64,000 bases of DNA from an uncultured bacterium (lineage in GTDB: Bacteria > Fermentibacterota > Fermentibacteria > Fermentibacterales > JCC-6). The position numbers and the translations under genes were made by a program. The number at the start of each line of letters is the position of its first letter. Position 1 is the first letter of the stretch. This document shows, piece after piece, positions 3,001 through 63,217 of the stretch. Below the pieces are notes generated by a model. The model worked only from the letters and a program-made list of their open reading frames with translations. It was not told where the DNA came from and did no database searches. The stretch spans positions 13,345 to 77,344 of the forward strand of contig CAYLRO010000003.1 of assembly GCA_964386635.1 (NCBI GenBank), written 5' to 3'.

Positions 3001-3636
3001 CAGGGTCCTGAAATATCCATGTGGATCACCGGGCAGAAAGAGTCAACAGAACCTGTGATAACAGGTGAAGGGCAGCTGGAAGCAGAGCTTTCCGACCCCA
3101 GCGGTATCACATTCCTGGGCAGAACCGGAAAAACCATTCAACTGTTCGTGGATGACACTGAGTACGACCTTTCGGATTCATTCTCCTACAACACAGGATC
3201 AACTGAAACAGGTCAGCTGCAGTATACCATGTCCGGCCTGGCAGCAGGGCAGCACAGGCTGATCCTCAGGGCTCAGGACGGAGTTGGGAACCCTTCCTCC
3301 GATACGCTTTATATCACATCAACAGATGCCGCTGATGTTGCCATACAGCAGCATCTTGTCTATCCGAACCCGGGTACGGGAACAAGATGCTTCAGTTTCA
3401 ATGTTTCTTCTTCAGCTCAGGTTACAGTTTCAATATTCACCACAGCAGGCAGATGTATTCAGAGACTTTCACAGTACTGTAACCAGGGATACAACCAGAT
3501 CATCTGGGACGGGTTTGACGGTGATGGTGACATTCCTGCTTCCGGTGCTTACATTTACATGATCGAGGCACAGACGGAGAACGGCCTTTTCAGCCAGTCT
3601 TCAACTGTGACCGGAGTTCTGGCCACGGTTAACTGA
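1..3636 (+). CDS. Gingipain-like (peptidase C25 family) secreted protein with T9SS C-terminal sorting domain. Truncated at the 5' end by the window edge.
   Basis: The reading frame is open from position 1, and the first Met at 46 is not preceded by a signal peptide. The translation has the C25-type His/Cys motifs (LVFHGHGSAN ... MFMSCDVSRF). The C-terminal ~80 aa (VYPNPGTGTRC...VTVSIFTTAGRCIQ...GAYIYMIEAQTENG) look like a Por/T9SS sorting domain. The gene ends at a TGA stop. Confidence 0.6.
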   Translation, partial: SGTFDFGTPVTADNGMPLLDGTVNIQEPGLPMYPVKTIFVPVPEDVVPELQFTSVMSRGFTSEIPRAGMLQGSGLEVVEVPAEPVDRRMETVELTGVFPLAGTQVAVVDIHPLTEQGLASSVTVSLSWDDRSSGMRIPENHLLYGLAQGNVYWPGSSERASSPFWGKPWARVSISETGGYRLTCDELEAGGCPVTGAPVQTLALFSGPGTQFDNAPETEHQLEPVAVVVEDSNGDGFFNEDDAVVFIAGGLNRFEYRNGVLEWLYHRYADDRVYWLTWGGDNGERMDAVSGSPDSSPSWGSSIPHIVHMEESGVWMPEWERRTGWFQEKVSSGEQITIPIDVDYTSGLSEVTIVFAVTEPSSYEISLQGYGSVQLSGSGSAQAVFSDVDLSGLSQLQVGFDSENPDADVYLDYVELSFPADASASGRRLFPGGPAGRYTFQIQGGISAAFDTSDLMNPLVITGGTQSSGVYSFSYTLTDTSSIMVLGEDDWLSPETVASSSPGRLVGTIFSGNRLLVVPPEFTNDALALEYLLEEIGYSVVTATTEEIYDEFGQGVKDPGAIRSAVRWGMDSWSTPLSTVILCGDGNYDPMGYSTTSPDLVPAMIFVGGSSSYPAWAVEDWFSQVHENSYFPEIPVARIPAGNAAAFGTVCAKSALYYSGETGGSWSSRAVLFADDEWGKDGAWQEGYHTEHLEEICYGDLPVHATPEKFYLIDFPWPPGTTPQSVHPEKPDARAAFLNLWNSGMGLLVFHGHGSANQLAHEKVLLGDDPAAMENGSRLPLVMFMSCDVSRFFNPGIDCIGEKVVYHPGGGAIASIGATGPTGSGGNLAYSQAILGYIFSEEDRSMGYAFWAGKLEAGRSGNSSYYVFLGVPDLPLMMSQHLVQVEVENDTLYSGEINTVSGSGVSQDGLALIEISESDIPWQYTMIGGGVIDYFRQGGTAWRGREPLSHGSFTAECMIPVSSSEGYLARADAASVVASGIEFGADAPLVLVQGDAPTDFQGPEISMWITGQKESTEPVITGEGQLEAELSDPSGITFLGRTGKTIQLFVDDTEYDLSDSFSYNTGSTETGQLQYTMSGLAAGQHRLILRAQDGVGNPSSDTLYITSTDAADVAIQQHLVYPNPGTGTRCFSFNVSSSAQVTVSIFTTAGRCIQRLSQYCNQGYNQIIWDGFDGDGDIPASGAYIYMIEAQTENGLFSQSSTVTGVLATVN

Positions 3637-3661: not shown

Positions 3662-4801
3662 ATGGGCAGCGACAAGATCAGCTGGTTATGGACACAGGTT
3701 GAAGAAGCTCGAGCTTCAAGAGACACAGAAAAGGCAAGAGAAAGCCTTGAACGGCTTCTGGAAGACAGTTCTGTGAAAGGCACGCCGGATGAGAATCTGG
3801 CTGCTCTTGAAATATCCCGTCTGGACATGGAATCCGGCAGACTGAATGAAGCAGCAAAACGGCTGGCGAATTTCAAGTGGGCAGGCATACCCGGTCCTGC
3901 TGCCATGCTTCTTGGTGCTGATGTATTCATGAAACTGGACAGGTTCGAGATGTCACTTGACGCCCTTGAATCTTACCTGAAACAGTATCCCAGAGACATT
4001 GATGCACAGCGGAAGAAAGGTCTCATCCTTTTGATGCTTCACAGGGATCAGGAAGCCGAGAGGATTCTGCTTTCAGTTGCCCGTAGAGAGAAATACAGAG
4101 TTCCTTCAACACTGACATACCTGGCGCTTCTGGAAGCAAAGGCAAACAGGCTGGAGGAAAGCCTTCACCTTCTTCTGCAGGCCAGGGAGCTGGCCCCGTT
4201 TGATGAGAAGATCGAACACAGCCTGCTCCGGATCGAGGCCCTCAGGGTACAGATGAGACGAAGTGCAGTTGAGAGCACGAAGCTTCCCCTCGAGGATGTT
4301 GTTCCAGGAATGACAGCAGGGATGCTGGGGCTGCACGGTTATTCCCCCAATCGTGCTCGAATTGCCTCGGAGGCCTGGAAGAAATTCTGTGCTGTGAACA
4401 CTCCCGCTGGAAGAAAACCCGAGACCTGGGCAGCGGCTCTGGAGTATGCTGTTACAAGGGAGGGTCCTCATCATACACAGGAGCAGCTGGCAGCTGAGTA
4501 TGGTGTATCTGTGACTCAGCTGAGGGATCATTATCAGGTGATAAGGGATTCTGTTGATCTTCCATCAGCAAACCTTCTTGAAGAGGTTGCAGAAGAGGGT
4601 TCCGATCTTCTCCGGGAGGCCAGGAAAGAAGAGATAGCAGCAGTTCTGGCTGAACTGGGTTCAGAAAACGGCAAATTCCGCAGTGCAGCAGAAGCAGCTT
4701 CCTGGGTTTTCGAAAGAGTCTCTCCTGTAGACGACAAACAGCGACGGGAAATGGAAGAGTTTGTTGCATACATCTGGCGCAGAAAGAATTACGATACTTA
4801 A
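3662..4801 (+). CDS. Hypothetical TPR-like repeat protein with a possible C-terminal HTH-like segment
   Basis: The 379-aa ORF has the RBS GGAGGGTGAG about 6 nt upstream. The N-terminal half is helical-repeat-like. The C-terminal segment EQLAAEYGVSVTQLRDHY resembles a helix-turn-helix. No family was recognised. Confidence 0.5.
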   Translation: MGSDKISWLWTQVEEARASRDTEKARESLERLLEDSSVKGTPDENLAALEISRLDMESGRLNEAAKRLANFKWAGIPGPAAMLLGADVFMKLDRFEMSLDALESYLKQYPRDIDAQRKKGLILLMLHRDQEAERILLSVARREKYRVPSTLTYLALLEAKANRLEESLHLLLQARELAPFDEKIEHSLLRIEALRVQMRRSAVESTKLPLEDVVPGMTAGMLGLHGYSPNRARIASEAWKKFCAVNTPAGRKPETWAAALEYAVTREGPHHTQEQLAAEYGVSVTQLRDHYQVIRDSVDLPSANLLEEVAEEGSDLLREARKEEIAAVLAELGSENGKFRSAAEAASWVFERVSPVDDKQRREMEEFVAYIWRRKNYDT

Positions 4802-12163: not shown

Positions 12164-12826
12164 GTGTTTCGCATGGTGCTGCACAGACCTCTTCCTGTAG
12201 AACCGGAGCGTGCCTTTATCCTTGGAGCCGGACGATTCGGCTCCGGCGCGGCAATACGGATTCACAGAAAATGGCCTGAGTGTCAGCTGCACATTGCAGA
12301 TGTCAAACTGGAGATCCCGGAGAACCTTCCCGGTTTTCATCACTCTTTTACAGACGGTATTGATCTTTTGAACAAGCATCTGCAAGGTTCCAGGCCTGAT
12401 GATCTGATTGTGCCGTGTATTCCGGTTCATGCGGCTTTCAACATGGTTCTCAGCCATTTTGGATTCTCCATACCTGTACCAATTCACCTTCTGGATGAAC
12501 TTCCCGGAGCAATTCCCGGAAGCGATGGATGCATGTACTGTTCTCTCAGTGATTTCCTCTGTTCTGCCGATTGCCCGGAGCCTGAGGGGTATTGTACGGT
12601 TACCGGGGAGAAGAGGGCAGATGCTCTGTATGATGTGATAAATAACCTTGATGAGAGTGCCTATCAGATTCTTGTTGTAAGATCGGCAACCCTGCTGCCA
12701 GGAGTGGGAGCCTTTTCTTCCGGTGTACTTTCCGACCTGCTTGACCGTGCAAGAAGCAGGAAAGGTAGATGCCTGATAGCAACAGCTTCCAGATGTCACG
12801 GAGTAATACACGGATTCACTCATTAG
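12164..12826 (+). CDS. Hypothetical protein, Rossmann-like GxGxxG N-terminus and a Cys-rich segment
   Basis: I chose this plus-strand ORF because the overlapping minus-strand ORF 12086..12880 has the Arg/Lys/Ser-rich antisense-type composition. The N-terminus reads FILGAGRFGSGAAIRI. A CMYCSLSDFLCSADCPEPEGYC cluster follows. No family was recognised. Confidence 0.4.
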   Translation: MFRMVLHRPLPVEPERAFILGAGRFGSGAAIRIHRKWPECQLHIADVKLEIPENLPGFHHSFTDGIDLLNKHLQGSRPDDLIVPCIPVHAAFNMVLSHFGFSIPVPIHLLDELPGAIPGSDGCMYCSLSDFLCSADCPEPEGYCTVTGEKRADALYDVINNLDESAYQILVVRSATLLPGVGAFSSGVLSDLLDRARSRKGRCLIATASRCHGVIHGFTH

Positions 12827-12908: not shown

Positions 12909-14105
12909 GTGAAATTAACTCTGATTCTGGTTGTTATTGCAGTTGGAATGAGCCTGGCAGCGGCCCCTAACTATGATCCGTACTACCTGCTTCAGGAAGG
13001 CTCAACCACTATAGACTGCGGCTACTACGGGTCACCCTGTGTTACCGACTGGAACAATGACGGCATGAAAGATCTTGTACTTGGAATCTTTACCGGTGGT
13101 AACATCTGGTTCTATGCCAACGAGAACACCAATGAAGACCCTGTATTCAACTCACATACTGTCATGCAGGCTGACGGGGTGAACATCACCCTGCCGGCCA
13201 GTTGATGCACCGGTGCTACAAATCCGCAGGCTGCGGATTGGAACGGTGACGGCCTGGACGACATCATTGTTGGCGACAGGAATGGATACGTAACATGGTT
13301 CAGAAGAACCGGCTCAGGAGTCAATGACCTGACATCCGAAGGACATCTGTCCGATGGCAGCGGAATCATTGACGTAGGTACGAACTCTGCTCCGGTTGTG
13401 GTTGACTGGAACGAAGATGGGCTGCTTGACCTGCTTATCGGCAACGAGAACAGTGGTCAGGGCATCAGGCTCTACATCAACTCAGGAACTGCAACAACCC
13501 CGGAACTCACCACCTGGAACTACATCTACAGTGCAGGATCCAGTATCAACTGGAGCAGGTGCTGCCCTCAGGTATACGACATGAACGGTGACGGCAATAA
13601 GGATCTTATTCTCGGAGATGATCCCGGCAAGATCTATTATTACGAGAACCAGGACAGCAACGACTCTCCTGTGTTCAACGGTTATGAGAATGTGCAGTAC
13701 GGCAATGTGAATATTGATCTGTATTACGGTGCCAGATTCTCCGTAAGTGACTGGAATGAAGACGGACTCCCTGACATCATCGCAAGCGATTACAACGGCA
13801 ATGTGAACATGTTCATAGCCAACAGTGTTGGACTTGCTGAAGAGGCCTCAGGTATTGTTGAAGGCGGCTTCGGTATTGTGCCTGCAGTTAATCCTGCACA
13901 GGGAGCTTTCAGCGTACTCGTGATGAATTCGCAGAGTTCTTCCCAGCTCACTGTTTATGATTCAGCAGGCAGAAGCGTTGTTAACACCAGTTCCGCCCAG
14001 GAGCTTGTGATAATTGAGGCCGGATCTCTTCCAACAGGTGTTTACACCGTGGTTGCAAGGAACAATGGCAGAATGTCTTCCTGCAGAATGGTGCTGACAG
14101 ACTAA
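12909..14105 (+). pseudogene. FG-GAP/VCBS-repeat secreted protein with T9SS C-terminal domain, interrupted by a single in-frame TGA at 13203-13205. The two ORF fragments are 12909..13205 and 13398..14105.
   Basis: The signal peptide is MKLTLILVVIAVGMSLAAAP. Repeated FG-GAP units (DWNNDGMKDLVLG, DWNGDGLDDIIVGD, DWNEDGLLDLLIGNE, DMNGDGNKDLILGDD, DWNEDGLPDIIASD) continue in the same frame straight through the TGA and the following 190 nt. The C-terminal ~80 aa are T9SS C-terminal-domain-like. Confidence 0.6.
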
Positions 14106-14120
14106 AACCGACCTGTATCT

Positions 14121-14150
14121 AAGGGCGGCTTTTCAGCCGCCCTTTTTGTT
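14121..14150. terminator. Bidirectional intrinsic terminator between convergent genes
   Basis: A perfect 10-bp stem (AAGGGCGGCT / AGCCGCCCTT) encloses a 4-nt loop and is followed by TTTTTGTT on the plus strand. Confidence 0.6.
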
Positions 14151-15339
14151 ACTGGTGTAACAGACTGACCTGCCGTGTTTCTGAAGAATGGCTGGAGAAT
14201 GGTTCTCCGCAGTCAACAGTGTAAAGCTGCTGGTAACCCAGTTCCGGATCGTCCTCCCAGGCCAGGATACCCTGTTCAGATATGGAGAATTGCCAGCTCC
14301 ATCCTGTTTCCTGGAATACTTTGTGTCCAAGAAGGATGCCGTCAAGATCGTAGATGTCAAAGAGCGGTCTTTCGCTGGTTCCTCTCTGTACCCAGATAGT
14401 GCTGTAGGGGCCAATCGCCACTTTCTTAACCATATCTCTGTAGGGTTCCGGGTTGAACTCCTGCATTCCCTGGGCCCCCATCTGGTTGAAGAAGCCTTCC
14501 ATGTAAGCCTTTTCATCAGCTATTTCTTCCTCGGTCTTAGCCACAGGTTCCAAATCAATGATGATGGTCAGTGCTTCAGAGCCATCAGGATTGAATCCAA
14601 TTACAGTGTATTCTTCAGATTCACAGAGAGAGAGTAGAATTATTTCACTGCTACCACCTACTGTGAGTCCGAGAAGGAAATCATTGATCATGTCCGAGGT
14701 GCCGTTTGCTATCAGGTGAGCCATTGTGAACTCTGTTGAGTCGCCCCAGAGAACAGTGTCGTATTCCGCTGTATCGTAAGTGAATATTGCCAGTCTTCTG
14801 TAAAGAATGAAGCTCTGGTCATCACCCTCTGCAAAGTCAGGTTTGTAGGCTGCGAAGGTAGAGTCAGAGATTGCAATGCACTGAAGGGGAGGATTCTGAG
14901 TCCAGTGCTGTATCTCTTCCACATAGTTCAAAGAATCGTCGAACACAACAAAACCCTGTTTATTCATGTTGTTAACAAGAGTTTTTCCGTTCATCTGGAA
15001 AAACTCGAAGGAGGCCACTGAAAGTTCCCCTGGTCCGTCACCCTGCCTGGAAATCTGACGGATGTACTCACCATCAGGAGTGTATTCTTTCAGGCATGAT
15101 CTTCCGCTATCAAGGACAAGGATGTTTCCTGTGGGCTCATGGTACTCTGCATCACTGAGAATTCCGAAGGTGTTTGTGGAATCACCCAGTTCCTCACCGA
15201 TGGAGCAGAGAATCCTCAGGGTATCTGTCTGGATTGCACCAGTCGCTGGCAGTTCCGCGACAGGGGTTTCCTGTTCGCAGGCTGCAGTAAGAAGTATTGA
15301 AAGGGCAATAAGACTACAGAGAATGGTTTTCATCAGCAA
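14149..15339 (-). CDS. Hypothetical lipoprotein (beta-propeller-like)
   Basis: The signal peptide has a lipobox (MKTILCSLIALSILLTAAC). The rest is a 396-aa mostly beta-rich sequence. Confidence 0.6.
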   Translation of the reverse strand: MLMKTILCSLIALSILLTAACEQETPVAELPATGAIQTDTLRILCSIGEELGDSTNTFGILSDAEYHEPTGNILVLDSGRSCLKEYTPDGEYIRQISRQGDGPGELSVASFEFFQMNGKTLVNNMNKQGFVVFDDSLNYVEEIQHWTQNPPLQCIAISDSTFAAYKPDFAEGDDQSFILYRRLAIFTYDTAEYDTVLWGDSTEFTMAHLIANGTSDMINDFLLGLTVGGSSEIILLSLCESEEYTVIGFNPDGSEALTIIIDLEPVAKTEEEIADEKAYMEGFFNQMGAQGMQEFNPEPYRDMVKKVAIGPYSTIWVQRGTSERPLFDIYDLDGILLGHKVFQETGWSWQFSISEQGILAWEDDPELGYQQLYTVDCGEPFSSHSSETRQVSLLHQ

Positions 15340-18299: not shown

Positions 18300-18827
18300 T
18301 TGTTTAGAACTGTTATTCTGGCAGCTGCCCTGACCTCTCTAGCAGTGGCAGGTACAATTGACTTTGTGGTTGAAGGGGCAGGTATTACACCTATAGGCGG
18401 TTGGGGAACTAACCTCAGTAATGGCCTTGCAGGCGGGGTTCAGGCAAACTGGCTGTTCTCCACCAGATTCAGAGCAGGGCTGGGAATTGAGGGGGCCACC
18501 TACGGTGACGGCTTTGACGGTAATGCTTCGTTCTCCCAGCTCAAGCCAATGGGCATTTTGTCCCTCTACCTGCGCCCTCATGGAAGAACATTCAATCCGG
18601 GACTTGTAGCTGCTTTCGGATACTGCAGAAGCAGACTTTCTTCCGGAGAAGGAATTGATCCAGCAAGCTGGGATCCATTCTGGAGAGCAGGTCTCAGGTG
18701 GAATTTCAGTCTTGGGTCTCCATGGCGGGCCGGACTGGGTTTTGACCTGGAAAGCGTGGCTGCTTCAGATAAGAGCGGAGATGCTTTCAGATTCACCTTC
18801 GGAGTATCCAGGGAGGTTCAGCTGTGA
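18300..18827 (+). CDS. Small outer-membrane beta-barrel-like protein (hypothetical)
   Basis: The protein has a signal peptide, Gly- and aromatic-rich alternating segments, and is 175 aa long. Confidence 0.45.
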   Translation: MFRTVILAAALTSLAVAGTIDFVVEGAGITPIGGWGTNLSNGLAGGVQANWLFSTRFRAGLGIEGATYGDGFDGNASFSQLKPMGILSLYLRPHGRTFNPGLVAAFGYCRSRLSSGEGIDPASWDPFWRAGLRWNFSLGSPWRAGLGFDLESVAASDKSGDAFRFTFGVSREVQL

Positions 18828-19477
18828 AAAAGATCATTCTGATCACGGCTTCAGCAGTGCTTGCTGTTTTTGCCGCCTGCGACAGTAATCCGCTTTATTT
18901 AAGGCTTGCTTCTGATTACTATCCGGTATCACCGGCTGGAGCAACCTGGGAGTATTCCATCCAGGGTGGTGGAAGCAGGATAGTAACTGTAGTGGACCAG
19001 ACCATTGTTGGAGAGAGGCCATGCTGGAGGCTGCAGTCCGGAGCGGATTACAGTTACTACATCAATGATGAGGGAAAACTTGAAAAATTCGAGGATCACA
19101 CTGTTCTATTCAACGGGTATGAGATACCTATTTATCAGGGTTGGATCACTTTGCTGAAGTGGCCCCTTGCTGATGGAATGACAAGAAGGGATTCTATTGG
19201 AGCACAGACTGTAAGCCAGGGAGTTACCCTGAGCCACACCTGGATAAGGAACCAGACTGTAACAGGGCCTGAAGTATCTCCTGACGGCAGCTGGGCGGAA
19301 TGTTACAGGATTCATCAGGAAGAGACAACAGTAAACTGGATACAGACTGCAGGTTTCGATCCGGAAACAACGGTTACCACCCGGAACATCTGGCTGGCTC
19401 CTGATGTGGGTACTGTGGCGGTGGAATCCCCTGACAGTGTGCTTACACTGACCTCGTTCACAGGCGGAGAGGAGTAG
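18824..19477 (+). CDS. Hypothetical lipoprotein
   Basis: The lipobox signal is MKKIILITASAVLAVFAAC. The gene is coupled to the upstream gene by a 4-nt overlap. Confidence 0.55.
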   Translation: MKKIILITASAVLAVFAACDSNPLYLRLASDYYPVSPAGATWEYSIQGGGSRIVTVVDQTIVGERPCWRLQSGADYSYYINDEGKLEKFEDHTVLFNGYEIPIYQGWITLLKWPLADGMTRRDSIGAQTVSQGVTLSHTWIRNQTVTGPEVSPDGSWAECYRIHQEETTVNWIQTAGFDPETTVTTRNIWLAPDVGTVAVESPDSVLTLTSFTGGEE

Positions 19478-21801: not shown

Positions 21802-22511
21802 GTAGAACTGAAAGCGGATCTTTCTGGGATCACCTGGAGGAATTCAGGAAGAGGCTTTTCTCAGTTGTGCTTGTTGTAGCTGTTTTTTCAGCTGTTGCAT
21901 TTTTCTTCAGCAGAAAAATGACGGAACTGGTAACTGATACGGCACCATGTACTCTTTCAGCACTGGCTCCAGCAGAGGCTGTTACCGCAAATCTGAAAAT
22001 AGCTGTTACAGCAGGGATCATTGCTGCGTCCCCGGTTATTCTCTTCCAGATCTGGAAGTTCATAGCACCGGGACTGTACCGGCGAGAGCGCAGATCCGTT
22101 ATTACTGTCAGCGCAGCAGGTGCTCTGCTTTTTGTTTCAGGAGCAGCATTTGCATGGTTTATCATGAGAGAACCGGCACTGCTGCTTTTTAAAAGCTTTG
22201 AAACCGGTAACATCACCGGACACTGGAGCGTTTCCAGTTATATTGATTTTATCGGAACGTTTCTGCTTGTGTTTGGAGCGGCCTTCCAGCTTCCGCTTGC
22301 AGTGATGTTTCTTGTTAAAACCGGTGTTATTGAACCAGGAAGTCTGGCAGGTTACAGGCGGCACATTCTGGTTGGGCTGCTTATCCTTTCCGCAATTCTG
22401 ACTCCACCTGATCCGCTTACACAGATAATGCTTACACTGCCTCTGTACATTCTCTTTGAGGGGAGTCTGCTGATAGCCCGGATCTCATATAGAAAGGGAA
22501 GAAAGAAGTGA
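21792..22511 (+). CDS. tatC: Twin-arginine translocase subunit TatC
   Basis: The protein reads MAIGRTESGSFWDHLEEFRKRLFSVVLVVAV... with 6 TM segments. I chose the ATG at 21792, which overlaps the aroB end. The ORF track's 21711 start would add about 27 unlikely residues. Confidence 0.8.
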   Translation: MAIGRTESGSFWDHLEEFRKRLFSVVLVVAVFSAVAFFFSRKMTELVTDTAPCTLSALAPAEAVTANLKIAVTAGIIAASPVILFQIWKFIAPGLYRRERRSVITVSAAGALLFVSGAAFAWFIMREPALLLFKSFETGNITGHWSVSSYIDFIGTFLLVFGAAFQLPLAVMFLVKTGVIEPGSLAGYRRHILVGLLILSAILTPPDPLTQIMLTLPLYILFEGSLLIARISYRKGRKK

Positions 22512-23902
22512 GAGATAAAGCTTCAACCGGAATGATACATGCAGTAATTATTCTTATCTTCACCGGTATTGTTGTCTGGTCATTTGCTCCGGTACTGACC
22601 ACTTTCTTCGGTCCTCAGAGTTTCATTACTTTTTTAAATCCCCTGAAAGCGGAAACCCCCTATTTTCAGTATTTGAGAGATGGATGGAGCTGGCAGAACG
22701 ATCAGGGCACTCTTGTTGGCTTTTTCAGACCCCTGGCAAGCACTCTGTACATGCTTGAATATCCGCTGTTCGGTATCCAGCCAATGGGCTACAAACTGGT
22801 AAGTTTCTTTCTGCACCTTCTAAGCTCGCTGCTGATCGGCTTAACGGTATTCAGTATCTCCGGCAGGAGAGTTGCCGGACTTGCTGCAGGCATGCTTTTT
22901 GCAGTTCACCCCGGCTCTCTCTGGGCTGTGGGGCTGATATCCACAAGGCCGGACATACTGGCAGCGGTCTTTTCAATTCTGGCCTTCAGAAGCACCTTCT
23001 CCTTGAGCAGATTCAAAGGATTCGATCTGAAGAAGGCTCTTCTTCCGGCTCTCTTTACTCTTCTGGCGCTTCTTGCCAAGGAACTTGGAGTGGCAAACCT
23101 GTTTGCACTGCCTGTTCTGTTTTTCCTGTGGCCGGGCAAAGAGACAAACAGGAAGAATGGCCTGATTCTTATACTTTCACTGGCAGTGGTTGCCCTGATC
23201 TATTTCACCGGACGTTTTCTAATATTCGGAGGAGTGGGAGGATATGATAGTACAGCATCGCTGAACGCTGTTTTAAGATGGATTCCGGTGATTGTTCTTC
23301 AGGTATCTGGAGCTGCATACCTCTCAGGGGCAGCTAAGGTTGCTCTTCTTTCTGTGGAGATACTGCTGCTGGGAGTCTTCCTGTACAGGAAACGCAGCCA
23401 GGGCGTAAGAATGCTTGCTGCAGGGATTCTGATTACCGGTATCTACAGTTTTCAGTCAATACTGTCGTATCCTGAACCTCATTACGTATACGCGCCTGCG
23501 ATGTTTTCCACTCTGTTCATTGTCTGTTTAGCAAGTTTTGCAGGACTGACAGAAGGCAGGATGAGGTTACCCTCTGCTGTTCTGCTCATAACAATTCTTG
23601 CAGGTTCAGTAGTTACATTGAGGAAGGATGGTGCGCTGTTTAATCTCATTGCTGCACCGCCCCAGCGGATCTATGCAGGACTCTCAGCCCTGACGGATGA
23701 GCTGATGGAAACAGCGCCTGAAGAGTGTCTGATCCTGCTTACCGGATCCGATATCCCTGAGCAAAGGGAGATGAAAAATGCTCCAATCTACCTGGCTTAT
23801 CTCTATTCAGGCAGTTGCAGGTTCAGTCTTACCTTTGAGCCTGTTCCCTCTGGAATCCCAGTGATAATGTGGGACGGAACAGAGGCTGTGCTGCTCAGAT
23901 AG
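22508..23902 (+). CDS. Polytopic membrane protein, probable GT-C-fold glycosyltransferase
   Basis: The 464-aa protein has about 11 predicted TM helices and a large loop after TM1. It resembles ArnT/PMT/DUF2723-type proteins. Confidence 0.45.
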   Translation: MRDKASTGMIHAVIILIFTGIVVWSFAPVLTTFFGPQSFITFLNPLKAETPYFQYLRDGWSWQNDQGTLVGFFRPLASTLYMLEYPLFGIQPMGYKLVSFFLHLLSSLLIGLTVFSISGRRVAGLAAGMLFAVHPGSLWAVGLISTRPDILAAVFSILAFRSTFSLSRFKGFDLKKALLPALFTLLALLAKELGVANLFALPVLFFLWPGKETNRKNGLILILSLAVVALIYFTGRFLIFGGVGGYDSTASLNAVLRWIPVIVLQVSGAAYLSGAAKVALLSVEILLLGVFLYRKRSQGVRMLAAGILITGIYSFQSILSYPEPHYVYAPAMFSTLFIVCLASFAGLTEGRMRLPSAVLLITILAGSVVTLRKDGALFNLIAAPPQRIYAGLSALTDELMETAPEECLILLTGSDIPEQREMKNAPIYLAYLYSGSCRFSLTFEPVPSGIPVIMWDGTEAVLLR

Positions 23903-35138: not shown

Positions 35139-35172
35139 AGCCGGCCTCCTTCACAGGGGGCCGGTTTTTTTG
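35139..35172 (+). terminator. Intrinsic terminator after the porin gene
   Basis: The stem AGCCGGCC...GGCCGGTT is followed by a T7 run (35165-35171). Confidence 0.55.
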
Positions 35173-35255
35173 TGGCTCCAGTTTCCCCGTTTCCTTATTC
35201 TGCTTATAATGTCTCTGTATACGCAGATACTTATTTTTTATCAGGGAGGGATGAT

Positions 35256-36401
35256 ATGCCGGAAGAGAATGTTGTACCAGAGGGAACAGCTCCTGAGGAA
35301 GTTGTGCCCGAAGCAGCCCAGACGGAGGCGGAACAGCCTGAAGAACCTGCTTCAACAGCACAGACACACAACAGAGAGCTTGGCTGCCAGAACTGCGGTG
35401 CACCGCTTGAGTACATGGAGGGCGAGAGTGTAATAACCTGCCCCTACTGCGGTACTACAACCATGCTTGCAGGCTATGACAACATCGTAAAGATTGACAG
35501 CCATTCCATGCTTCCCATGAATGTTAACGAGAATGATGCCATCAGTGCCCTGCTCACATGGCTTTCAAAGGGATTCCACCGGTCGAAGAAGAATATTCAG
35601 ACTGCCAAAGTCGAGTCCATCAGGGGGCTCATGCTGCCGTACTGGATAGTGAAGAGCAATGCTTCCACTGCATGGCGGGGGAAGAAAAAGAGAACAAGAA
35701 CTGTGGGAACCGGTGACAAGAAGAAGACCGAGACCTGGTGGGAGCCTGTAAGCGGCAGATTCAGCGAGGACTACACCTGGCCTGAGTACGCCCGTGAAGA
35801 CCCTGATGAATTCTGGGGCGTTGAGAACATCAAGCCCGGGAAAAAGTCTCTCTTTCCAGACTGGGGCAAATTCTGGCTCAGATTCGGAGGAGGCAGGGAA
35901 AGCCCGAACCGGAACCTTCTTGACGGACAGCTGCCTTTTGACATTCAGGAAGTCAAGAAGTGCGGTATGGCTGATAACATGGTTAACGGTCAGATAACTC
36001 AGGAAAGAGCAGAGTCCAATGCAAAGGGCAACATAAAGGAACATCAGGCTAAGAAGGCTGACAAAAAAGCGGATGTTCTTTCAGACGTGGACACAGTTGT
36101 TAATGTTAACAAGGTTGATCTTGTGTACGTCCCGATGTGGGAGATGAAGTACAGCCTGAACGGTAAAAGCTACAATGCCCTTGTAGACGGCACAAAGAAG
36201 GAAGTTCTTTCAGCTGAGTATCCTGTGAGTACAAAGGCCCGAGTAACAATATTCGATATCTTCCTGGGCATACCTGCTATCATCGCAGGAGCAATCGGTT
36301 TTGCCGGAGACGGATCCAAAGTTGCAACAATAATCTTCTTCGTCCTTCTGGTTCTGATGCTTGCATACAGCCTTCTCAAAGGTCTTTCCGGAAAGAGTTG
36401 A
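35256..36401 (+). CDS. Hypothetical tail-anchored protein with N-terminal acidic/Pro-rich segment and zinc ribbon
   Basis: The ATG at 35256 has a GGGAGGG RBS 5 nt upstream. The ORF track's 35172 start lies inside the terminator. The zinc ribbon is CQNCGAPLEYMEGESVITCPYCG. A Lys-rich central region is followed by a single C-terminal TM helix (IFLGIPAIIAGAIGFAG...FFVLLVLMLAY). Confidence 0.6.
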   Translation: MPEENVVPEGTAPEEVVPEAAQTEAEQPEEPASTAQTHNRELGCQNCGAPLEYMEGESVITCPYCGTTTMLAGYDNIVKIDSHSMLPMNVNENDAISALLTWLSKGFHRSKKNIQTAKVESIRGLMLPYWIVKSNASTAWRGKKKRTRTVGTGDKKKTETWWEPVSGRFSEDYTWPEYAREDPDEFWGVENIKPGKKSLFPDWGKFWLRFGGGRESPNRNLLDGQLPFDIQEVKKCGMADNMVNGQITQERAESNAKGNIKEHQAKKADKKADVLSDVDTVVNVNKVDLVYVPMWEMKYSLNGKSYNALVDGTKKEVLSAEYPVSTKARVTIFDIFLGIPAIIAGAIGFAGDGSKVATIIFFVLLVLMLAYSLLKGLSGKS

Positions 36402-54431: not shown

Positions 54432-54789
54432 TGACAAACTTGAGAAGCGCATTGATGAACTGCTTTCATCCAGTGTGTGTACAGGAGCAGAACCATCGGG
54501 TTTCAGAGTAAGTCTGATTCCGCTGCGGCCTGCATTCCCATGGTATAAAGTCGCCTATGTTCTTATTGCAGCAGTAGTGCTGGGTTTCTTCATGGTTCAG
54601 TGGTTCCAGATGCAGAAACTGGAGACAGGCAACTACGATTCAATATTTACAGCGGAATCAGTATCCGGCCTTTTCTCAGGAATAAATTCCAGTGAACTGG
54701 TTTCCATTGTGGCTATTGTAATAGGTCTTGGCGGCACACTTGTAGCTTTTCTCTCTGAAAGAAACAGGGTCTTGCACCGTATGCTATAA
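54415..54789 (+). CDS. Putative membrane-anchored anti-sigma factor (hypothetical)
   Basis: The assignment rests on position immediately downstream of the ECF sigma gene with a 17-nt overlap, and on the TM helices. It is an inference from position. Confidence 0.45.
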   Translation: MNSWGNDKLEKRIDELLSSSVCTGAEPSGFRVSLIPLRPAFPWYKVAYVLIAAVVLGFFMVQWFQMQKLETGNYDSIFTAESVSGLFSGINSSELVSIVAIVIGLGGTLVAFLSERNRVLHRML

Positions 54790-54833
54790 TTGCATACACA
54801 GCATTTGAAACCAAGTTTCAACAGGGAGTATCT

Positions 54834-56861
54834 ATGAAAAAATTCCTTATAATCCTGCCGTTTGTTCTGCTTGCAGCCTGCGGTGGGGAGAACAACCCAT
54901 CCACAGCCACCAGGGAAGCCGATGTGCCCTTTCTGGAGCCTGATCATGTGAGTTCTGAGAACGCGGAAAGGCTTATTCCCAGAGATGTTCTTTTCGGTAA
55001 TCCGGAGAAGATGGGTCCACAGCTCTCTCCAGACGGTTCTCTGATAGCTTTTATTGCACCGGCAGAGAATGTTCTTAATCTGTGGGTGATGAACCGTGAT
55101 ATGACAGAAGAAAGGCAACTTACCTTCGATAGCAACAGAGGAGTCACAAACTACTTCTGGGCAGAGAATGGAGAGCACATCCTGTACATGCAGGATGAAG
55201 CCGGCGAGGAAAATACACACGTTTACAGGCTTGATGCAGCAACTGGTGATGTTGTTGATCTGACACCGTTTGAGGATGTAAAAGCTTATGTCAGCGCTAC
55301 TGACAAAGATCAACCCAACACTGTACTCATCGAAACAAACGAACAGAATGCAATGTTCTTCGATGTTTACAGCTGTGATCTTCAAACTGGCGAACTTACC
55401 ATGATCGCTGACAATCCCGGCACGGATGAGTTCGGTAACATGGTTCTGGGATTCATGCCGGACGAAGACATGAACATCAGAATGTATTACACGATTAATC
55501 CTGAAACGGGATGGATAACCATTTACCACCGCTGGGATGCAGATTCTCCCTGGGAGGAACTTCAGACATTCTCTTCCGATGAAGAATGGGGTCCTAGAAG
55601 ATTTACAGATGATGGAAGAGGGTTGTACCTCACTTCCAATCTTCAGTCTGACCTTACCGGCTTCTACTACATGGACCTTGAAACACGTGAACAGGTTCAT
55701 ATCATCTCGGACAGTCTGGCGGATGTGGGAAGTGTGGCGTTTGATCCTCATACAGGTGATCCCAGGGCAGTAAGTTTCAACTACCTGCGGAGAAGAAGAG
55801 AGATACTTGATGATTCTATCAGGGAAGATGTTGAATTCCTCGAAGAGTTTCATGAAGGGGACTTTGGCACAGCTTCCAGTGACAATGCCGACAGCACATG
55901 GGTCATTGTCTACTTCACTGTAGACAATCCCGCAGTGTACTTCCTCTATGACAGAACAGACGGCTCAATGACTGAGATGTTCACAGCAATTCCTGCACTG
56001 GAGAACTACCAGCTTGCAGAAGTTCAGCCTGTGGAGATCATGTCCCGCGACGGAATGATTCTTCCCAGTTATCTCACAATGCCTGAAGCGGAATTCTACG
56101 GTGAAGGTCCTTATCCCACAATTATGTATGTGCATGGAGGCCCCTGGGCCAGGGATTACTACGGTTACGAGCCTTTTGCTCAGCTCTTCGCCAACAGAGG
56201 TTTTGCTGTTCTTCAGGTTAATTTCAGGGGATCCACCGGTTTTGGAAAAGCATTTGTTACCGCTGCCAACAAGCAGTGGGGACAGAATATGCAGAACGAT
56301 ATCACCGACGGTGTGAACTGGGCTGTAGAAAACGGTGTGGCAGATCCTGATAGAGTCGTTATCCTGGGAGGCTCCTACGGAGGTTATGCAACACTTGCAG
56401 GAGCTGCATTTACACCTGAGCTCTACTGTGCTGCAGTGGACTTTTTCGGCCCTTCCAACCTGATCACATTCATGGAAACAGTGCCGCCATACTGGCGTCC
56501 TCTAATGGCAATGATGAACATTCGTGTGGGCAATCCGGAGGAAGAGGCTGATGCAGCAATGCTTGAGCAGTATTCACCTCTTAACTTCCCTGAAAACATC
56601 ACAATGCCCATGTTTATTGTTCAGGGTGAAAACGACCCCAGAGTGGTAAAAGCCGAGAGTGATCAGATGGTTGAAGCTCTCAGGGGAATAGGCACGGAAG
56701 TTCTCTATGTGGTTTACGGCGACGAGGGTCACGGTTTTGCCCATGAGGAAAATCGTCTGGACTTTGCAGGCAGGGTTGAGGAATTCCTCTACCTTAATGT
56801 TCCCGGTGTTGAGTGCGAACTGTTTGAATCCGTTGAGGGGTCTACAGTAAGAATAGAATAG
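54834..56861 (+). CDS. S9 family serine peptidase (prolyl oligopeptidase/dipeptidyl aminopeptidase-like) lipoprotein
   Basis: The lipobox is MKKFLIILPFVLLAAC. An N-terminal beta-propeller region precedes a C-terminal alpha/beta hydrolase with the nucleophile motif ILGGSYGGYAT and later His-containing segments. Confidence 0.85.
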   Translation: MKKFLIILPFVLLAACGGENNPSTATREADVPFLEPDHVSSENAERLIPRDVLFGNPEKMGPQLSPDGSLIAFIAPAENVLNLWVMNRDMTEERQLTFDSNRGVTNYFWAENGEHILYMQDEAGEENTHVYRLDAATGDVVDLTPFEDVKAYVSATDKDQPNTVLIETNEQNAMFFDVYSCDLQTGELTMIADNPGTDEFGNMVLGFMPDEDMNIRMYYTINPETGWITIYHRWDADSPWEELQTFSSDEEWGPRRFTDDGRGLYLTSNLQSDLTGFYYMDLETREQVHIISDSLADVGSVAFDPHTGDPRAVSFNYLRRRREILDDSIREDVEFLEEFHEGDFGTASSDNADSTWVIVYFTVDNPAVYFLYDRTDGSMTEMFTAIPALENYQLAEVQPVEIMSRDGMILPSYLTMPEAEFYGEGPYPTIMYVHGGPWARDYYGYEPFAQLFANRGFAVLQVNFRGSTGFGKAFVTAANKQWGQNMQNDITDGVNWAVENGVADPDRVVILGGSYGGYATLAGAAFTPELYCAAVDFFGPSNLITFMETVPPYWRPLMAMMNIRVGNPEEEADAAMLEQYSPLNFPENITMPMFIVQGENDPRVVKAESDQMVEALRGIGTEVLYVVYGDEGHGFAHEENRLDFAGRVEEFLYLNVPGVECELFESVEGSTVRIE

Positions 56862-59130: not shown

Positions 59131-61611
59131 CTATCTGAGCAGGGTAAACATGAGAGGTTCACCGGTTGAGCTTGAAACAACGGAATAAACTCCGCTGGGA
59201 AGACTGCTGCAGTTAATCAGGCATGTTTCTTCAGGTTGAATTGAAGTGTTTCTCTCAAGGACTGTTCTTCCGCTGATGTCATACACGGTTATTCTGCCGG
59301 AAAAAGCTGTACTTCCCTGAAGAACTGACAGGCTTAATGTGTTCTGAACCGGATTGGAGAGTATCTGCAGTCCTGCATTATTTGCGCTGTTCTCTCCCTG
59401 AATGCCCTCCGGGGTTTCACAGTAGATGTTCCAGTCAGTTCCCCCGGTTCCTGCCCAGTAGACTCTTCCACCTGATGACACCGGGTTCCATACAGGCCCT
59501 GTGGAACTGACAGACTGGAATGGTTCAGACCAGCTGTTTCCAGTAAGTACAGATGCCCAGCCGGTGGCACTGGTTCTTCCCAGCTGCCAGTAAACCATGG
59601 TTTCCCCGGTTGAACCCGGGCAGATAACCGGGCTGACAATGTGAGATGCTGAATTCTCCAGAACATTCTGTTCAGGCAGCCACTGTGAGCCATCCCATAT
59701 TCTGGCCGTCACTGATGAGGTTATTCCATCAGACTGCCAGACAGCTGTGAGATTTCCGTTTACAAGTGCTATATGAGGAGAGTGGCAGAACATGCCGGAA
59801 GAAATTTCAACCGGTGCGGAAAAACCGTTCTCGTCTCCTGCTGACCACATGATCGAGCTGCCTGTGGAGGAGTTTTTTACCCACACAGCATGGAGATCAC
59901 CCTGAGGGCCTCCGGAAACAGCGGGAGCGGTGGCCCATGTACCATTTTCACTCACCTGTACGGAAAAGGAAGCGCCCTCAAGGGTTTTCAGCATTATCCT
60001 TCCCCCTGTGCTTTCCCAGTCCTGCCAGGCAAGCCACATCCTGTCAGTGCAGGCAAGATCCGGAGATACCTGATATCCTTCCTGAGGTGCTGCAGTTGTC
60101 ACATTTGCAAAAGGTATTCCGTGGGCTGTTTTTATCCTGTAAGAGTATGTGGCGTATTCGAAATCACTCCATGCAAGCCACGGCTCTCCGGAGTTGTCGA
60201 AACACACTGAAACACTGCTGTCCCAGTACTCGTCTGCATCAACTATGTAAACCTGGCTCCAGCTGTCTCCGTTCTCATCATGGAATCTGGCTGCCACATC
60301 AAGTCTGCCGTTCTCTCCTGTAAGCCACGCTACGGCTGTAACTCCGTTATAGCTGTCTGCGTCTGGGAAACAGTCCGAGTGTGAACTTGTTGAAACTGCG
60401 AATCCATCAGTATTCTCTGAAATCCGGTGAACTCCTGAGCTTGTGGCCATGGCGGACATGGGTTTAAGAGTAGGGTCACCCAGAAGGGCATTTCCGTAAA
60501 ACCATGCTTTTTCATCTGCACTGAAACCACCGGAAGCTTCATACTCCCACCAGTCTCTGAAGGCTTCTCCGAAGCAGGAGCCGGAACCTATCGGATTGTA
60601 GAACTGTTCGAAATCAAGCATTGAACCTGTTTTTGCAGCACCTGATATGAGAAGACCGGTATCCGTACCGAAAAGATACCAGTTGCCCAGGCACCCGGAT
60701 TCCACCCATCTTGCATTGGAGCAGGAGAAAAGCTGGAGAAAGGCTGTGTTAGGGTTTACCTGAGCTATCTCAGGAGCCATTACTGTGCCAGCCATACCGG
60801 AAGGAGTTTTGAATGTGTGTCCCCATGGGCAGGAGTGCGCCATAAGGTGAACGAACTCGTAGCCCTCTCCCAGTCTTGTGAGATAGTTGGCTGCAGTTGT
60901 TTCAACCGGTGAATTTACCACAGTGACATTGGAGGATCCGTAGATGCTGTTCAACCCGCAGTCGGTGTAACCGCTCCAGTCATCATCTATGAATGCAAGT
61001 GCTCTTGCAGGAGGAGCCATTGAGCCTGTTCTGTAAAGGTGATTCTTTTCAAGATATTGCGACAGCATTAGAATTTCGGAGCCGAACTCTGCTGCGTGTG
61101 CATCGATCCTGCCAATCCATATCTCAGGTGCAACATCTCCGGTATGGGAATCGAAGAGACCGTCTGCGTCTGCGTCTCCCCATACACCGTCGAGATCCAT
61201 CAGGTAGAGTTCGCATGGGAATTCCTCAACAGCCCAGTAGTCTTCCTCATACCAGGCGCAGGGTAGAAACCCGATAAGTATTGCACCATCAAGGTCAGGT
61301 TCCGACTGCAGCAGTGTTCGAATAGACGAGGCTGTTCCTCCGGACATGACCTGAATGGAAGTGTTCCAGCCTTCGGCCTGCAGATCTGAGCTGAGCTGTG
61401 AGATCTGGGATGACAGCTGGTCGTTAACGCCCTCTGCAACCAGTATCAGCACAGTGTTTCCGTCAGAACAGAATGAAGTTCTGCGGGAAATTTCTTCAAA
61501 AGAGGCGCTGTGGCTCTCAAGAGGTGAAATCTCAACACTCTGCCTGCTGAGATTTTCAATACCTCCAGGTACCAGTGCGCTGATAAGCGAGAGAATAACA
61601 GGAAGAATCAT
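59131..61611 (-). CDS. Secreted C25-like (gingipain-family) protein with T9SS C-terminal sorting domain
   Basis: The protein has a signal peptide. Putative His and Cys motifs are EFVHLMAHSCPWGHT and LQLFSCSNARW. The C-terminal ~80 aa (ITVYDISGRTVLERN...LPSGVYSVVSSSTGEPLMFTLLR) are T9SS C-terminal-domain-like. Confidence 0.55.
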   Translation of the reverse strand: MILPVILSLISALVPGGIENLSRQSVEISPLESHSASFEEISRRTSFCSDGNTVLILVAEGVNDQLSSQISQLSSDLQAEGWNTSIQVMSGGTASSIRTLLQSEPDLDGAILIGFLPCAWYEEDYWAVEEFPCELYLMDLDGVWGDADADGLFDSHTGDVAPEIWIGRIDAHAAEFGSEILMLSQYLEKNHLYRTGSMAPPARALAFIDDDWSGYTDCGLNSIYGSSNVTVVNSPVETTAANYLTRLGEGYEFVHLMAHSCPWGHTFKTPSGMAGTVMAPEIAQVNPNTAFLQLFSCSNARWVESGCLGNWYLFGTDTGLLISGAAKTGSMLDFEQFYNPIGSGSCFGEAFRDWWEYEASGGFSADEKAWFYGNALLGDPTLKPMSAMATSSGVHRISENTDGFAVSTSSHSDCFPDADSYNGVTAVAWLTGENGRLDVAARFHDENGDSWSQVYIVDADEYWDSSVSVCFDNSGEPWLAWSDFEYATYSYRIKTAHGIPFANVTTAAPQEGYQVSPDLACTDRMWLAWQDWESTGGRIMLKTLEGASFSVQVSENGTWATAPAVSGGPQGDLHAVWVKNSSTGSSIMWSAGDENGFSAPVEISSGMFCHSPHIALVNGNLTAVWQSDGITSSVTARIWDGSQWLPEQNVLENSASHIVSPVICPGSTGETMVYWQLGRTSATGWASVLTGNSWSEPFQSVSSTGPVWNPVSSGGRVYWAGTGGTDWNIYCETPEGIQGENSANNAGLQILSNPVQNTLSLSVLQGSTAFSGRITVYDISGRTVLERNTSIQPEETCLINCSSLPSGVYSVVSSSTGEPLMFTLLR

Positions 61612-61675: not shown

Positions 61676-63217
61676 TCAGTTACCGGAAATAACCACCGCT
61701 GAAACAGAAATACCCCCTTGTGTGAATACCGTGTCGCTGTTGAATGGCTGCCAGCCTTCCACTATGATGCAGTCCACTTCGAATGCCTCTGCCATTCTCT
61801 CCGCCTCGGGAGATGGCCAGCTGTTCAGTATCATCGCAGTGTGAGAGTAATCCCGGGGAAGAATCAGGCTGTAACCGTTAACAGATGGAGTGAAATGCTG
61901 CACCGAGCCTGTCAGTCTCAGCGCTTCTGTTTCCCATGAGGTGTTGTCTGTTGCAAGAGGCAGGTAGATGACCTTCTCGAATTCCATTTCTGCCAGCCAG
62001 TCATGTACCGGCTGACTGTCAACAGGTATTGTTTCATAAGGTTTGTGGTAAACTCCTGCTGCAGCTGCCAGAACACCCAGAATAACAAGAAGAGTGTTCT
62101 TCGACAGTATTTTTCCAGCCAGGATTCCCATGGGGAACAGGGCGAATATGGCAGCCCCCAGCGGTGATGTTACAGCAGAAGCCCCTGGCAGCCCGGTGAA
62201 CAAGGTGAATGGGCCGGGGCAGATCTCGTTTCCAAAAAGAACAAGTGAGGGTCCCGGACTGAGAACGGCAAAAACCAGAGAACAGAGAAGCAGATACCTG
62301 TCCATCCGGTTCACCCTGCCTCTGAACATGAACCAGATCAGACCTGCCGCAGTTGCAAGCCCCGGCCAGAATGCAGCTTCAGATGAAACATGAACTGATC
62401 TCATCCAGCCCAGGAGGACACTGGTTTTCCAGGGGGCCAGGAATGCTGCAATATCAATTGTTGCAGGGGCATCTGCCAACGGAGAAACCGCTCTTCTCAA
62501 GTGGTCGAGAATGAAAGGTATGCCCAGAGCATTGCCGGCGACCCAGAATCCCAGGAATCCGGGGACTCTTCTCCGGGTTTCCTTCTGGAGAATAAAGGGC
62601 AGCAGAAGAAACAGAGCGATGTTCAAAAAGAACCAGTGATTTGCTGAAGCCGGAGCCTGAGCAAAAATACAGAGAAGAATCGGCCATCCGGATGACTTTT
62701 CCCTTACAAAACGCAGAGAGAAATAGATGGCCAGAATGGAAAGACCCACAGAGAACAGCTGCAGATGGCTGATCTGTGACTGGAACCAGGGAAGAAGCAC
62801 CACTGAAATTCCCGCATAAAGTGCTGCTGTGGCTGATCCGTCCGTTTCAATTGTCAGCAGAGCTACTGAGTAGCCTGCAATGGATAGAAAAAGTACCAGA
62901 AGCAGGTTGTGAATAAGGAACTGATTCAGGCTGAATACCTTCAGCAGAGCTGCAGGAACGCTTTGTGTCAGAAGCCTGTCATTCAGGCTGCCAGCATGGG
63001 AGAAACCTGAGAATATTGGCAGATGAAGAGGGTTTTCTCCTGCAGAAACAGCATGAATGTTCCACTGGATAAGCCAGCTGTTGAAAAGGGTGTCCGAATG
63101 ATCGTATGGCTGGGAACTTGTGCCCAGTGGCCAGAGAGCAAAGATGGAGAAAGCAATGAAAAGAGGAATCGCAAAAGCTGCATTTCGCACACCTTTGCGA
63201 TTCCTCCTGCTGTTCAA
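61676..63217 (-). CDS. Polytopic membrane protein, possible GT-C-like glycosyltransferase (hypothetical)
   Basis: The 513-aa protein has more than 10 TM helices. It starts 5 nt after the proS stop. No family was recognised. Confidence 0.4.
   Translation of the reverse strand: MNSRRNRKGVRNAAFAIPLFIAFSIFALWPLGTSSQPYDHSDTLFNSWLIQWNIHAVSAGENPLHLPIFSGFSHAGSLNDRLLTQSVPAALLKVFSLNQFLIHNLLLVLFLSIAGYSVALLTIETDGSATAALYAGISVVLLPWFQSQISHLQLFSVGLSILAIYFSLRFVREKSSGWPILLCIFAQAPASANHWFFLNIALFLLLPFILQKETRRRVPGFLGFWVAGNALGIPFILDHLRRAVSPLADAPATIDIAAFLAPWKTSVLLGWMRSVHVSSEAAFWPGLATAAGLIWFMFRGRVNRMDRYLLLCSLVFAVLSPGPSLVLFGNEICPGPFTLFTGLPGASAVTSPLGAAIFALFPMGILAGKILSKNTLLVILGVLAAAAGVYHKPYETIPVDSQPVHDWLAEMEFEKVIYLPLATDNTSWETEALRLTGSVQHFTPSVNGYSLILPRDYSHTAMILNSWPSPEAERMAEAFEVDCIIVEGWQPFNSDTVFTQGGISVSAVVISGN

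Follow-up and report, generated by a model that had tools for sequence, protein, structure and literature searches.

The window analysed here, a stretch of 64,000 nucleotides from an uncultured bacterium of the Fermentibacterota (contig CAYLRO010000003.1), contains at 12909..14105 on the + strand an FG-GAP repeat gene that is interrupted by a single TGA. This gene very probably encodes one exported selenoprotein of 398 residues, in which the UGA at codon 99 would be decoded as selenocysteine (Sec, U) under the direction of SelB and a selenocysteine insertion sequence (SECIS). Sec insertion is strongly supported by three sequence features, namely the conserved TGA, the vicinal Cys and a covarying downstream hairpin of the bacterial SECIS (bSECIS) type. 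In the original prediction, which was made from the nucleotide sequence without database searches, Sec insertion had been ranked as the most speculative of four options, and the conserved TGA-Cys pair and the covarying bSECIS hairpin reverse this ranking. The features of the gene are listed below.

12909..14105, + strand: complete putative selenoprotein gene (GTG start, 398 codons including UGA-99 as Sec, TAA at 14103-14105)
12909..12965, + strand: predicted signal peptide (MKLTLILVVIAVGMSLAAA), recognized by inspection (hydrophobic core, small-residue A-A-A motif)
12999..13823, + strand: five FG-GAP/VCBS repeats, predicted beta-propeller (D-x-N-x-D-G motifs starting at 13047, 13236, 13404, 13578 and 13749)
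13203..13205, + strand: in-frame UGA, predicted Sec codon, residue 99
13206..13208, + strand: Cys-100 (TGC), vicinal to Sec in the motif G-U-C-x-G
13210..13252, + strand: possible lower stem around the hairpin, not established (ACCG 13209-13212 region with the GAC-GGN region, RNAfold)
13221..13239, + strand: SECIS-like hairpin (8-bp stem AAUCCGCA/UGCGGAUU, apical loop GGC at 13229-13231)
13890..14093, + strand: T9SS (type IX secretion system) type A sorting domain, residues 328-395 (TIGR04183 with 33.1 bits, cut-off 23; PF18962 with 28 bits, cut-off 27)

Translation verified that the TGA at 13203-13205 is the sole in-frame stop of the frame and that the gene contains no further stops or frameshifts. 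This agrees with the original prediction, which had also correctly described the Cys following the TGA, the 8-bp hairpin at 13221-13239 and the use of TGA as a genuine stop in neighbouring genes. Past the TGA, the open frame goes on through '...CTGATNPQAADWNGDGLDDIIVGD...DWNEDGLLDLLIG', and gene callers break the gene into open reading frames (ORFs) of 98 aa and 235 aa. The start codon called at 13398 had been taken to be an ATG encoding an internal Met; its internal position was confirmed and the codon proved to be GTG, encoding Val. The UGA codon is not reassigned in the genetic code of this organism, because TGA is the commonest stop of the window (it ends 16 of the 36 long ORFs) and because in several orthologues a second TGA serves as the genuine terminator. 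A scan of the window revealed no other convincing candidates for TGA read-through.

A protein search yielded 480 homologues, most of which are 278-296 aa long, align to only approximately 72% of the query and, with M/V-DWNGDG, 'start' just past the site. This observation suggests that their gene calls were clipped at a conserved stop. Every one of the loci L001-L036, which share 30-68% identity with the query and carry labels that include Ca. Sabulitectum, Fermentibacteraceae, Aegiribacteria, Hyd24-12, Fibrobacterota, Chitinivibrionales, WOR-3 and Zixibacteria, contains at the equivalent position a single in-frame TGA with Cys as the next codon, with the consensus ...LP(S/Y)G-[TGA]-C-T-G-A-T-N-P-Q-V-V-D-W-N-G-D-G. 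The distant loci of Planctomycetota, Victivallales and Sumerlaeota show G-[TGA]-C-(V/I/Q)-G-A-Y-P-Q. The window and 50 orthologous or paralogous sites add up to 51 TGA-Cys sites on genome contigs, and a pattern scan of metagenome contigs provided 61 more sites on 60 contigs (56 of them distinct), all in frame within FG-GAP ORFs. The orthologues hence have a TGA and not a sense codon at this position, and what is conserved is the read-through frame and not a truncation; full-length read-through orthologues comprise 386-445 aa. Several genomes contain two copies of the gene, some of them in tandem, and each copy has its own TGA. Such tandem Sec copies were located at L006 3223/4699, L011 3247/4458 and L013 1948/3196, and the family is often duplicated in this manner.

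In the alignment of the 51 read-through proteins, the column of residue 99 is TGA in 49, the order of the pair is reversed (C-U) in the other two, and both the vicinal Cys and a Gly at +3 are present in all 51. The two reversed cases are Victivallales proteins of approximately 1300 aa (L041 at ~3196 and L042 at ~3202) that carry R-G-C-[TGA]-G-S in an N-terminal FG-GAP domain. Other Cys residues, including the C-C of repeat 4, occur in only a third to half of the members. This Cys-Cys (SRCCPQV) had been proposed as the position equivalent to the TGA-Cys; the correspondence is only rough, as five additional residues (TGATN) precede the shared P-Q-x-x-D strand in the Sec repeat. Two observations concern the edges of the family. 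Two TGA-carrying FG-GAP loci, L015 and L022, stem from metagenome-assembled genomes (MAGs) labelled Desulfuromonas/Desulfuromonadaceae, but their sequences group with the Fermentibacteria-type family, and these labels may reflect mis-binning or horizontal transfer. At position 2507 of L078, from a Verrucomicrobiales MAG, an in-frame TGA-Cys lies in an FG-GAP context ('KHW-[TGA]-CGTVSPQFADLNGDG') off the G-U-C-x-G pattern, and it may be a further variant.

Four metagenome samples (L081-L084) each gave an independent assembly of the window gene's locus. The region 13150-13260 is identical in all four assemblies and the gene contains 18 single-nucleotide polymorphisms (SNPs) outside of it, of which 18 are synonymous and none is non-synonymous. 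The ratio of non-synonymous to synonymous substitution rates (dN/dS) ranges from 0.03 to 0.37 upstream of the TGA and from 0.07 to 0.40 downstream, and both halves of the gene are under purifying selection.

The protein architecture links the two halves as well. Pfam matches to FG-GAP repeats (PF13517, FG-GAP_3, 8.5e-23; PF01839, 2.3e-8) and to Por_Secre_tail, together with sorting-domain scores above their cut-offs, bear out the initial annotation as a T9SS cargo gene with FG-GAP repeats. As judged from its sorting domain and predicted signal peptide, the product is a T9SS type A cargo, and a comparable hydrophobic leader is found at or near the start of almost all read-through orthologues. 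The signal peptide occurs exclusively before the TGA and the sorting domain exclusively after it, and both halves must therefore form one polypeptide. An AlphaFold2 model was made of the Sec-less paralogue P0026, in place of the window read-through protein; it has a predicted local distance difference test score of 89.9 and contains approximately 20 strands in residues 21-304 and a beta-sandwich at 321-401. The blade count of about five follows from the repeats and the strand number, not from coordinates. Foldseek searches against the PDB returned only generic FG-GAP-type propellers (integrin alpha, ITFG2, BBS proteins and PorZ).

Homologues without Sec were analyzed at the same position. Ordinary FG-GAP/VCBS T9SS cargos, including P0026 and P0002/P0005, have an architecture like that of the window protein and 44-52% full-length identity to it; unlike the window gene they have no UGA, and in the more diverged ones the hairpin is missing as well. 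The residue at the Sec position is Glu in P0026 and P0002, Ala in P0005 and L046, Asp in P0117 and Gly in L047 and L051, and E-T, E-F or A-W stands in place of the U-C pair in P0026 and P0002/P0005. One example is locus L010, where a Sec copy at 3020 is accompanied at 4441 by the Sec-less copy P0026, which has GAA-ACC (Glu-Thr) for TGA-TGY and has kept the hairpin sequence; judged from these sequences, P0026 looks like a very recent Sec loss. The Pirellulales loci L047 and L051 have no TGA and read S-G-C-L-G-C-F-P-R, with a CxxC that begins at the conserved Cys, and a shift by one residue would align the first Cys of their C-L-G-C with Sec. The Sec-less L046 (Phycisphaerae) has G-G-A-C-M-G at the same loop. 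The motifs of L047, L051 and L046 suggest a two-thiol alternative to the Sec-Cys pair.

The hairpin downstream of the TGA

According to the consensus model (Zhang and Gladyshev; summary in PMC13188914, Fig. 2A), a bSECIS has a loop of 3-9 nt, a stem of 4-16 bp, a G in the first two loop positions, a spacing of 16-37 nt and a minimum free energy of -7.5 kcal/mol or lower. The hairpin of the window (AATCCGCA-GGC-TGCGGATT) fits this model with a loop of 3 nt (GGC), a perfect stem of 8 bp, a spacing of 23 nt and an energy of -9.2 kcal/mol; it starts 15 nt past the TGA and its apical loop lies 23 nt past the TGA. RNAfold placed this same hairpin past all 51 sites. Covariation was assessed by explicit pair counting on the 51-site alignment, in which 89.2% of the cells of the 8-bp helix are paired versus 25-41% in slid controls. 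Double-sided changes were counted in 21 cells of the helix, and the observed covariation score was reached by none of 500 shuffles. The hairpin is hence conserved, with compensatory changes, and SECIS-like in its geometry.

The central pair of the stem illustrates how the protein sequence adapts to the RNA. It is A-U at 41 sites, G-C at 6, C-G at 3 and U-A at 1, and it is unpaired at none. The pair couples the synonymous third base of a Pro codon (CCA/CCG/CCU) with the second base of the codon three positions on (GUG Val, GCG Ala or GAG Glu), so that the protein sequence alters to preserve the stem. Codon choice at the hairpin also departs from that of the same genes. CCA, their rarest Pro codon, is used at 41 of 50 sites (82% versus a background of 11%), and GAT encodes Asp in 76% of cases versus a background of 39%. 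In P0005 and P0002, both Sec-less orthologues, the identical peptide NPQVADW is specified by AAT/AAC-CCA-CAA-GTT-GCA-GAC-TGG, codons that are unable to form the stem. In the possible lower stem, pairing is feasible at 75-100% for three pairs, through changes that are only one-sided or wobble, both sides encode conserved residues, and no compensatory changes were detected among the aligned sites.

We infer the following sequence of events for the binding of SelB, the insertion of selenium, export and the chemistry at the U-C pair. Translation from the GTG at 12909 would yield the signal peptide, and the hairpin at 13221-13239, with its loop A-GGC-U 23 nt downstream, would act as a bSECIS that recruits SelB-GTP-Sec-tRNA(Sec), so that Sec is inserted in place of termination and translation runs on to the TAA at 14103. 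The product would fold into an FG-GAP propeller of approximately five blades followed by the T9SS C-terminal sorting domain, and it would cross the inner membrane and reach the cell surface or the medium by way of the type IX system. Sec-99 and Cys-100 would be placed in the loop by which the chain enters the innermost strand of blade 2. In propellers, the face formed by the inner-strand loops is the usual ligand-binding side. The putative U-C pair is most probably a vicinal selenenylsulfide redox couple or a soft-metal/metalloid site.

Competing explanations for the TGA

Two of the options initially listed regard the TGA as damage or as an artefact. A recent nonsense mutation would have left a dead gene that yields a 98-residue fragment or nothing, which would agree with the split ORFs of 98 aa and 235 aa given by gene callers and with the Sec machinery not being seen in the sequence examined. 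Such a pseudogene is nevertheless extremely unlikely. TGA occupies the same codon in over 100 diverged genes of numerous phyla (50 further genome-contig and 61 metagenome sites with TGA-Cys), with several paralogues per genome, and the 30-68% identity of the loci excludes copies of one contaminant sequence. In addition, purifying selection acts on both sides of the TGA with dN/dS well below 1, strain polymorphisms are synonymous throughout, and neither a second stop nor a frameshift has accumulated. A sequencing or assembly error at a real sense codon, e.g. TGG or TGC, is favoured solely by the general prior of single-base errors in metagenome assemblies, and its probability is close to nil, given that the four independent assemblies agree at the TGA and throughout 13150-13260, differ elsewhere in the gene by synonymous SNPs only, and that TGA is kept in unrelated assemblies of other projects. 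The two halves could also be two products, if UGA really terminates translation and the downstream part arises by re-initiation or from a gene of its own. Many database entries do begin at an M/V-DWNGDG codon just past the site, and TGATG holds an ATG that overlaps the stop. However, this ATG is out of frame and opens an ORF of only 13 codons, and the first in-frame start past the TGA in the window lies 65 codons downstream. The downstream part would have no signal peptide and yet carry a T9SS sorting domain that needs prior export, the upstream part would consist of only a signal peptide and approximately 1.3 propeller blades, and the residues C-T-G-A-T-N-P-Q between the TGA and the supposed starts are the most conserved of the protein. 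We therefore regard two separate products as very unlikely.

Recoding of the UGA without selenium is a closer competitor, and still an improbable one. It could take the form of near-cognate read-through (Trp, Cys or Arg) stimulated by the hairpin, or of SelB/SECIS-dependent Cys insertion by tRNA-Cys(UCA); a tRNA-Cys with a UCA anticodon has been described for some bacteria. A conserved, translated UGA with a structure downstream is equally compatible with this explanation, and no pair of Sec and Cys homologues was found. On the other hand, the hairpin has the geometry of a SelB-type bSECIS and a G-G/U loop, and the UGA lies beside a Cys in G-U-C-x-G (G-C-U-G in the Victivallales), a setting typical of redox or metal motifs with Sec. 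An ordinary residue should have allowed sense codons to replace TGA many times across the phyla, and the sequences that lost TGA carry Glu, Gly, Ala or Asp there, not Trp or Cys.

Several results weigh against a selenoprotein and have to be set beside the evidence above. Only 30 of the 51 sites pass a strict perfect-stem version of the bSECIS rules, and the other 21 fall just short of the energy cut-off. The folding energy of the single hairpin sequence does not reach significance (z = -0.73), the alignment of 51 sequences yielded no consensus structure in RNAalifold, the recent Sec-less tandem paralogue P0026 keeps the hairpin, and the Sec-less P0117 and L051 carry other small hairpins. As bSECIS-compliant hairpins lie downstream of 48 of the 2736 TGA triplets of the window (~1.8%), which is the rate expected by chance, and as z is -0.73, the significance of the hairpin rests on its conservation and covariation across relatives. 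No clear homologue with Cys in place of Sec was found in a limited sampling of distant homologues (a protein search restricted to the N-terminal part, 11 candidates), which is unusual for selenoproteins. The genes selA, selB, selD and tRNA-Sec were not found in the window, in approximately 150 loci or in approximately 6 kb past the left window end, all of which are small genome fragments and hence uninformative in this respect. These searches employed ARAGORN on the window and the loci, tblastn with E. coli SelA, SelB and SelD queries, and Pfam on the genes of the window and the flanks; the only tblastn match was a GTPase in an unrelated locus. One candidate, an AIRS-domain gene at L148 535-1476 directly upstream of the Sec-less orthologue P0005, seemed SelD-like at first and turned out to be ThiL, a thiamine-phosphate kinase (TIGR01379, 200 bits). 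Finally, the Foldseek results against the PDB include no informative structural match and ORF clustering across 49 loci revealed no conserved neighbour gene, so that the function proposed for the U-C pair is entirely inferred.

Relation to known selenoproteins

The recoding mechanism proposed here is the standard bacterial one. Like the window gene, bacterial selenoprotein genes, with E. coli fdhF as prototype, have an in-frame UGA and a stem-loop directly downstream in the coding region. The window hairpin resembles a bSECIS in its 3-nt apical loop opening with G-G, its spacing of 23 nt, its 8 bp and its energy, and the Sec lies beside a Cys. In contrast to fdhF-type genes, the host protein is outside known families, and the window hairpin shows no sequence relationship with the fdhF hairpin.

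Mammalian thioredoxin reductase has a C-terminal Gly-Cys-Sec-Gly redox centre. In this centre, as in the family described here, a Cys/Sec pair is located between glycines; the Victivallales variants are exactly G-C-U-G, and the main family has G-U-C-x-G. By analogy, a reversible eight-membered selenenylsulfide ring at the U-C pair is plausible. The motif of the window protein differs in being internal, in a propeller loop, and is accompanied by neither a flavoprotein domain (Pfam) nor an obvious extracellular electron donor, which makes this an analogy and not a homology.

Adjacent Sec and Cys residues are also found in catalogued families, including the CopZ-family (2Fe-2S)-binding protein (GxUC, CU), the MerB-like SaoL, HgcA and MbdU (each CU) and KCU-star (PMC13188914, Table 1). 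This shared feature suggests bidentate binding of soft metals or organometals, or a selenenylsulfide, in the window protein. These families have other folds and gave no NCBIfam match, whereas the window protein is a predicted beta-propeller with a secretion tail. That exported selenoproteins exist is evident from Sec proteins that act outside the cytoplasm, such as the FCYXU-type TonB-dependent receptor, the GSU2204/MtrB-type outer-membrane protein, the ExtKL cytochrome and DsbA/DsbG-like proteins (PMC13188914; PMC12013277). However, none of them is an FG-GAP propeller or T9SS cargo, and their motifs are CxxU and UxxC.

A selenoprotein family of FG-GAP propellers appears to be new. NCBIfam release 20.0 gave only the T9SS tail above cut-off and a sub-threshold XAC2610-related domain, with no selenoprotein model among the matches, and a search of Rfam around the site gave no match at the gathering threshold or at E <= 10. 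Table 1 of PMC13188914, which lists 119 prokaryotic selenoprotein families (May 2026), includes neither an FG-GAP, VCBS or T9SS family nor an entry that matches G-U-C-x-G. FG-GAP, VCBS, propeller or repeat proteins are not mentioned in the deep-Sep and BSepDB papers, and a full-text literature search returned nothing relevant that joins FG-GAP, VCBS or T9SS to selenocysteine or selenoproteins. We put at about even the chances that the genes described here represent a so far uncatalogued family of beta-propeller selenoproteins from multiple phyla, exported or located at the cell surface, in which the G-U-C-x-G loop is invariant and lacks Cys-for-Sec counterparts. The lack of Cys counterparts would explain why pipelines that depend on Sec/Cys pairs have missed the family, and would point to a blind spot of SECIS-independent selenoprotein searches.

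If this is true, the family would carry out an extracellular chemistry for which Cys cannot replace Sec, e.g. selenenylsulfide redox reactions at the cell surface or the capture of soft metals or metalloids in sulfidic, anoxic habitats. Confirmation would add a widespread family to the catalogue of approximately 119 and correct a systematic mis-annotation, as public (NCBI) records split or truncate these genes to ~98 aa and 235-296 aa. It would also place Sec on a secreted FG-GAP propeller, beyond the thioredoxin-like folds that dominate among known selenoproteins, and indicate selenium dependence in poorly known anaerobic phyla (Fermentibacterota, WOR-3, Zixibacteria, Phycisphaerae), sometimes with several paralogues per genome. 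A hairpin in which amino-acid changes preserve base pairs could moreover serve as a clean benchmark for bacterial SECIS models.

Genomic neighbourhood

In the ORF clustering of the loci, the second-largest neighbour cluster consists of antisense ORFs of the FG-GAP gene itself. The gene directly upstream in the window (12164..12826, + strand; Pfam AF_1314_C) ends in a conserved ...CHGVIHGFTH. It is also found upstream of the FG-GAP gene in the close relatives L001, L004 and L005, a synteny within the close lineage only.

Window ORFs without a Pfam match at E <= 0.001 are 22508..23902, 35172..36401, 61676..63217, 18300..18827 and 18824..19477. Two long ORFs overlap at 54633..55853 (- strand) and 54834..56861 (+ strand); the latter belongs to the Peptidase_S9 family, and the former, which has no Pfam match, is probably spurious.

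Two large Peptidase_C25 (gingipain-like) genes and a gene for an 826-aa protein with a T9SS tail are located on the same contig (window 46..3636, + strand, and 59131..61611, - strand; L145 1863-5564 and 6298-9975). The organism thus has several T9SS cargos.

One further feature is located 3' of the putative selenoprotein gene:

14121..14152, + strand: terminator-like GC hairpin with T-run (consensus scan, 10 pairs, 7 of them G-C)

This hairpin lies between the convergent genes 12909..14105 (+ strand) and 14149..15339 (- strand), is common to both and may be active in both directions.

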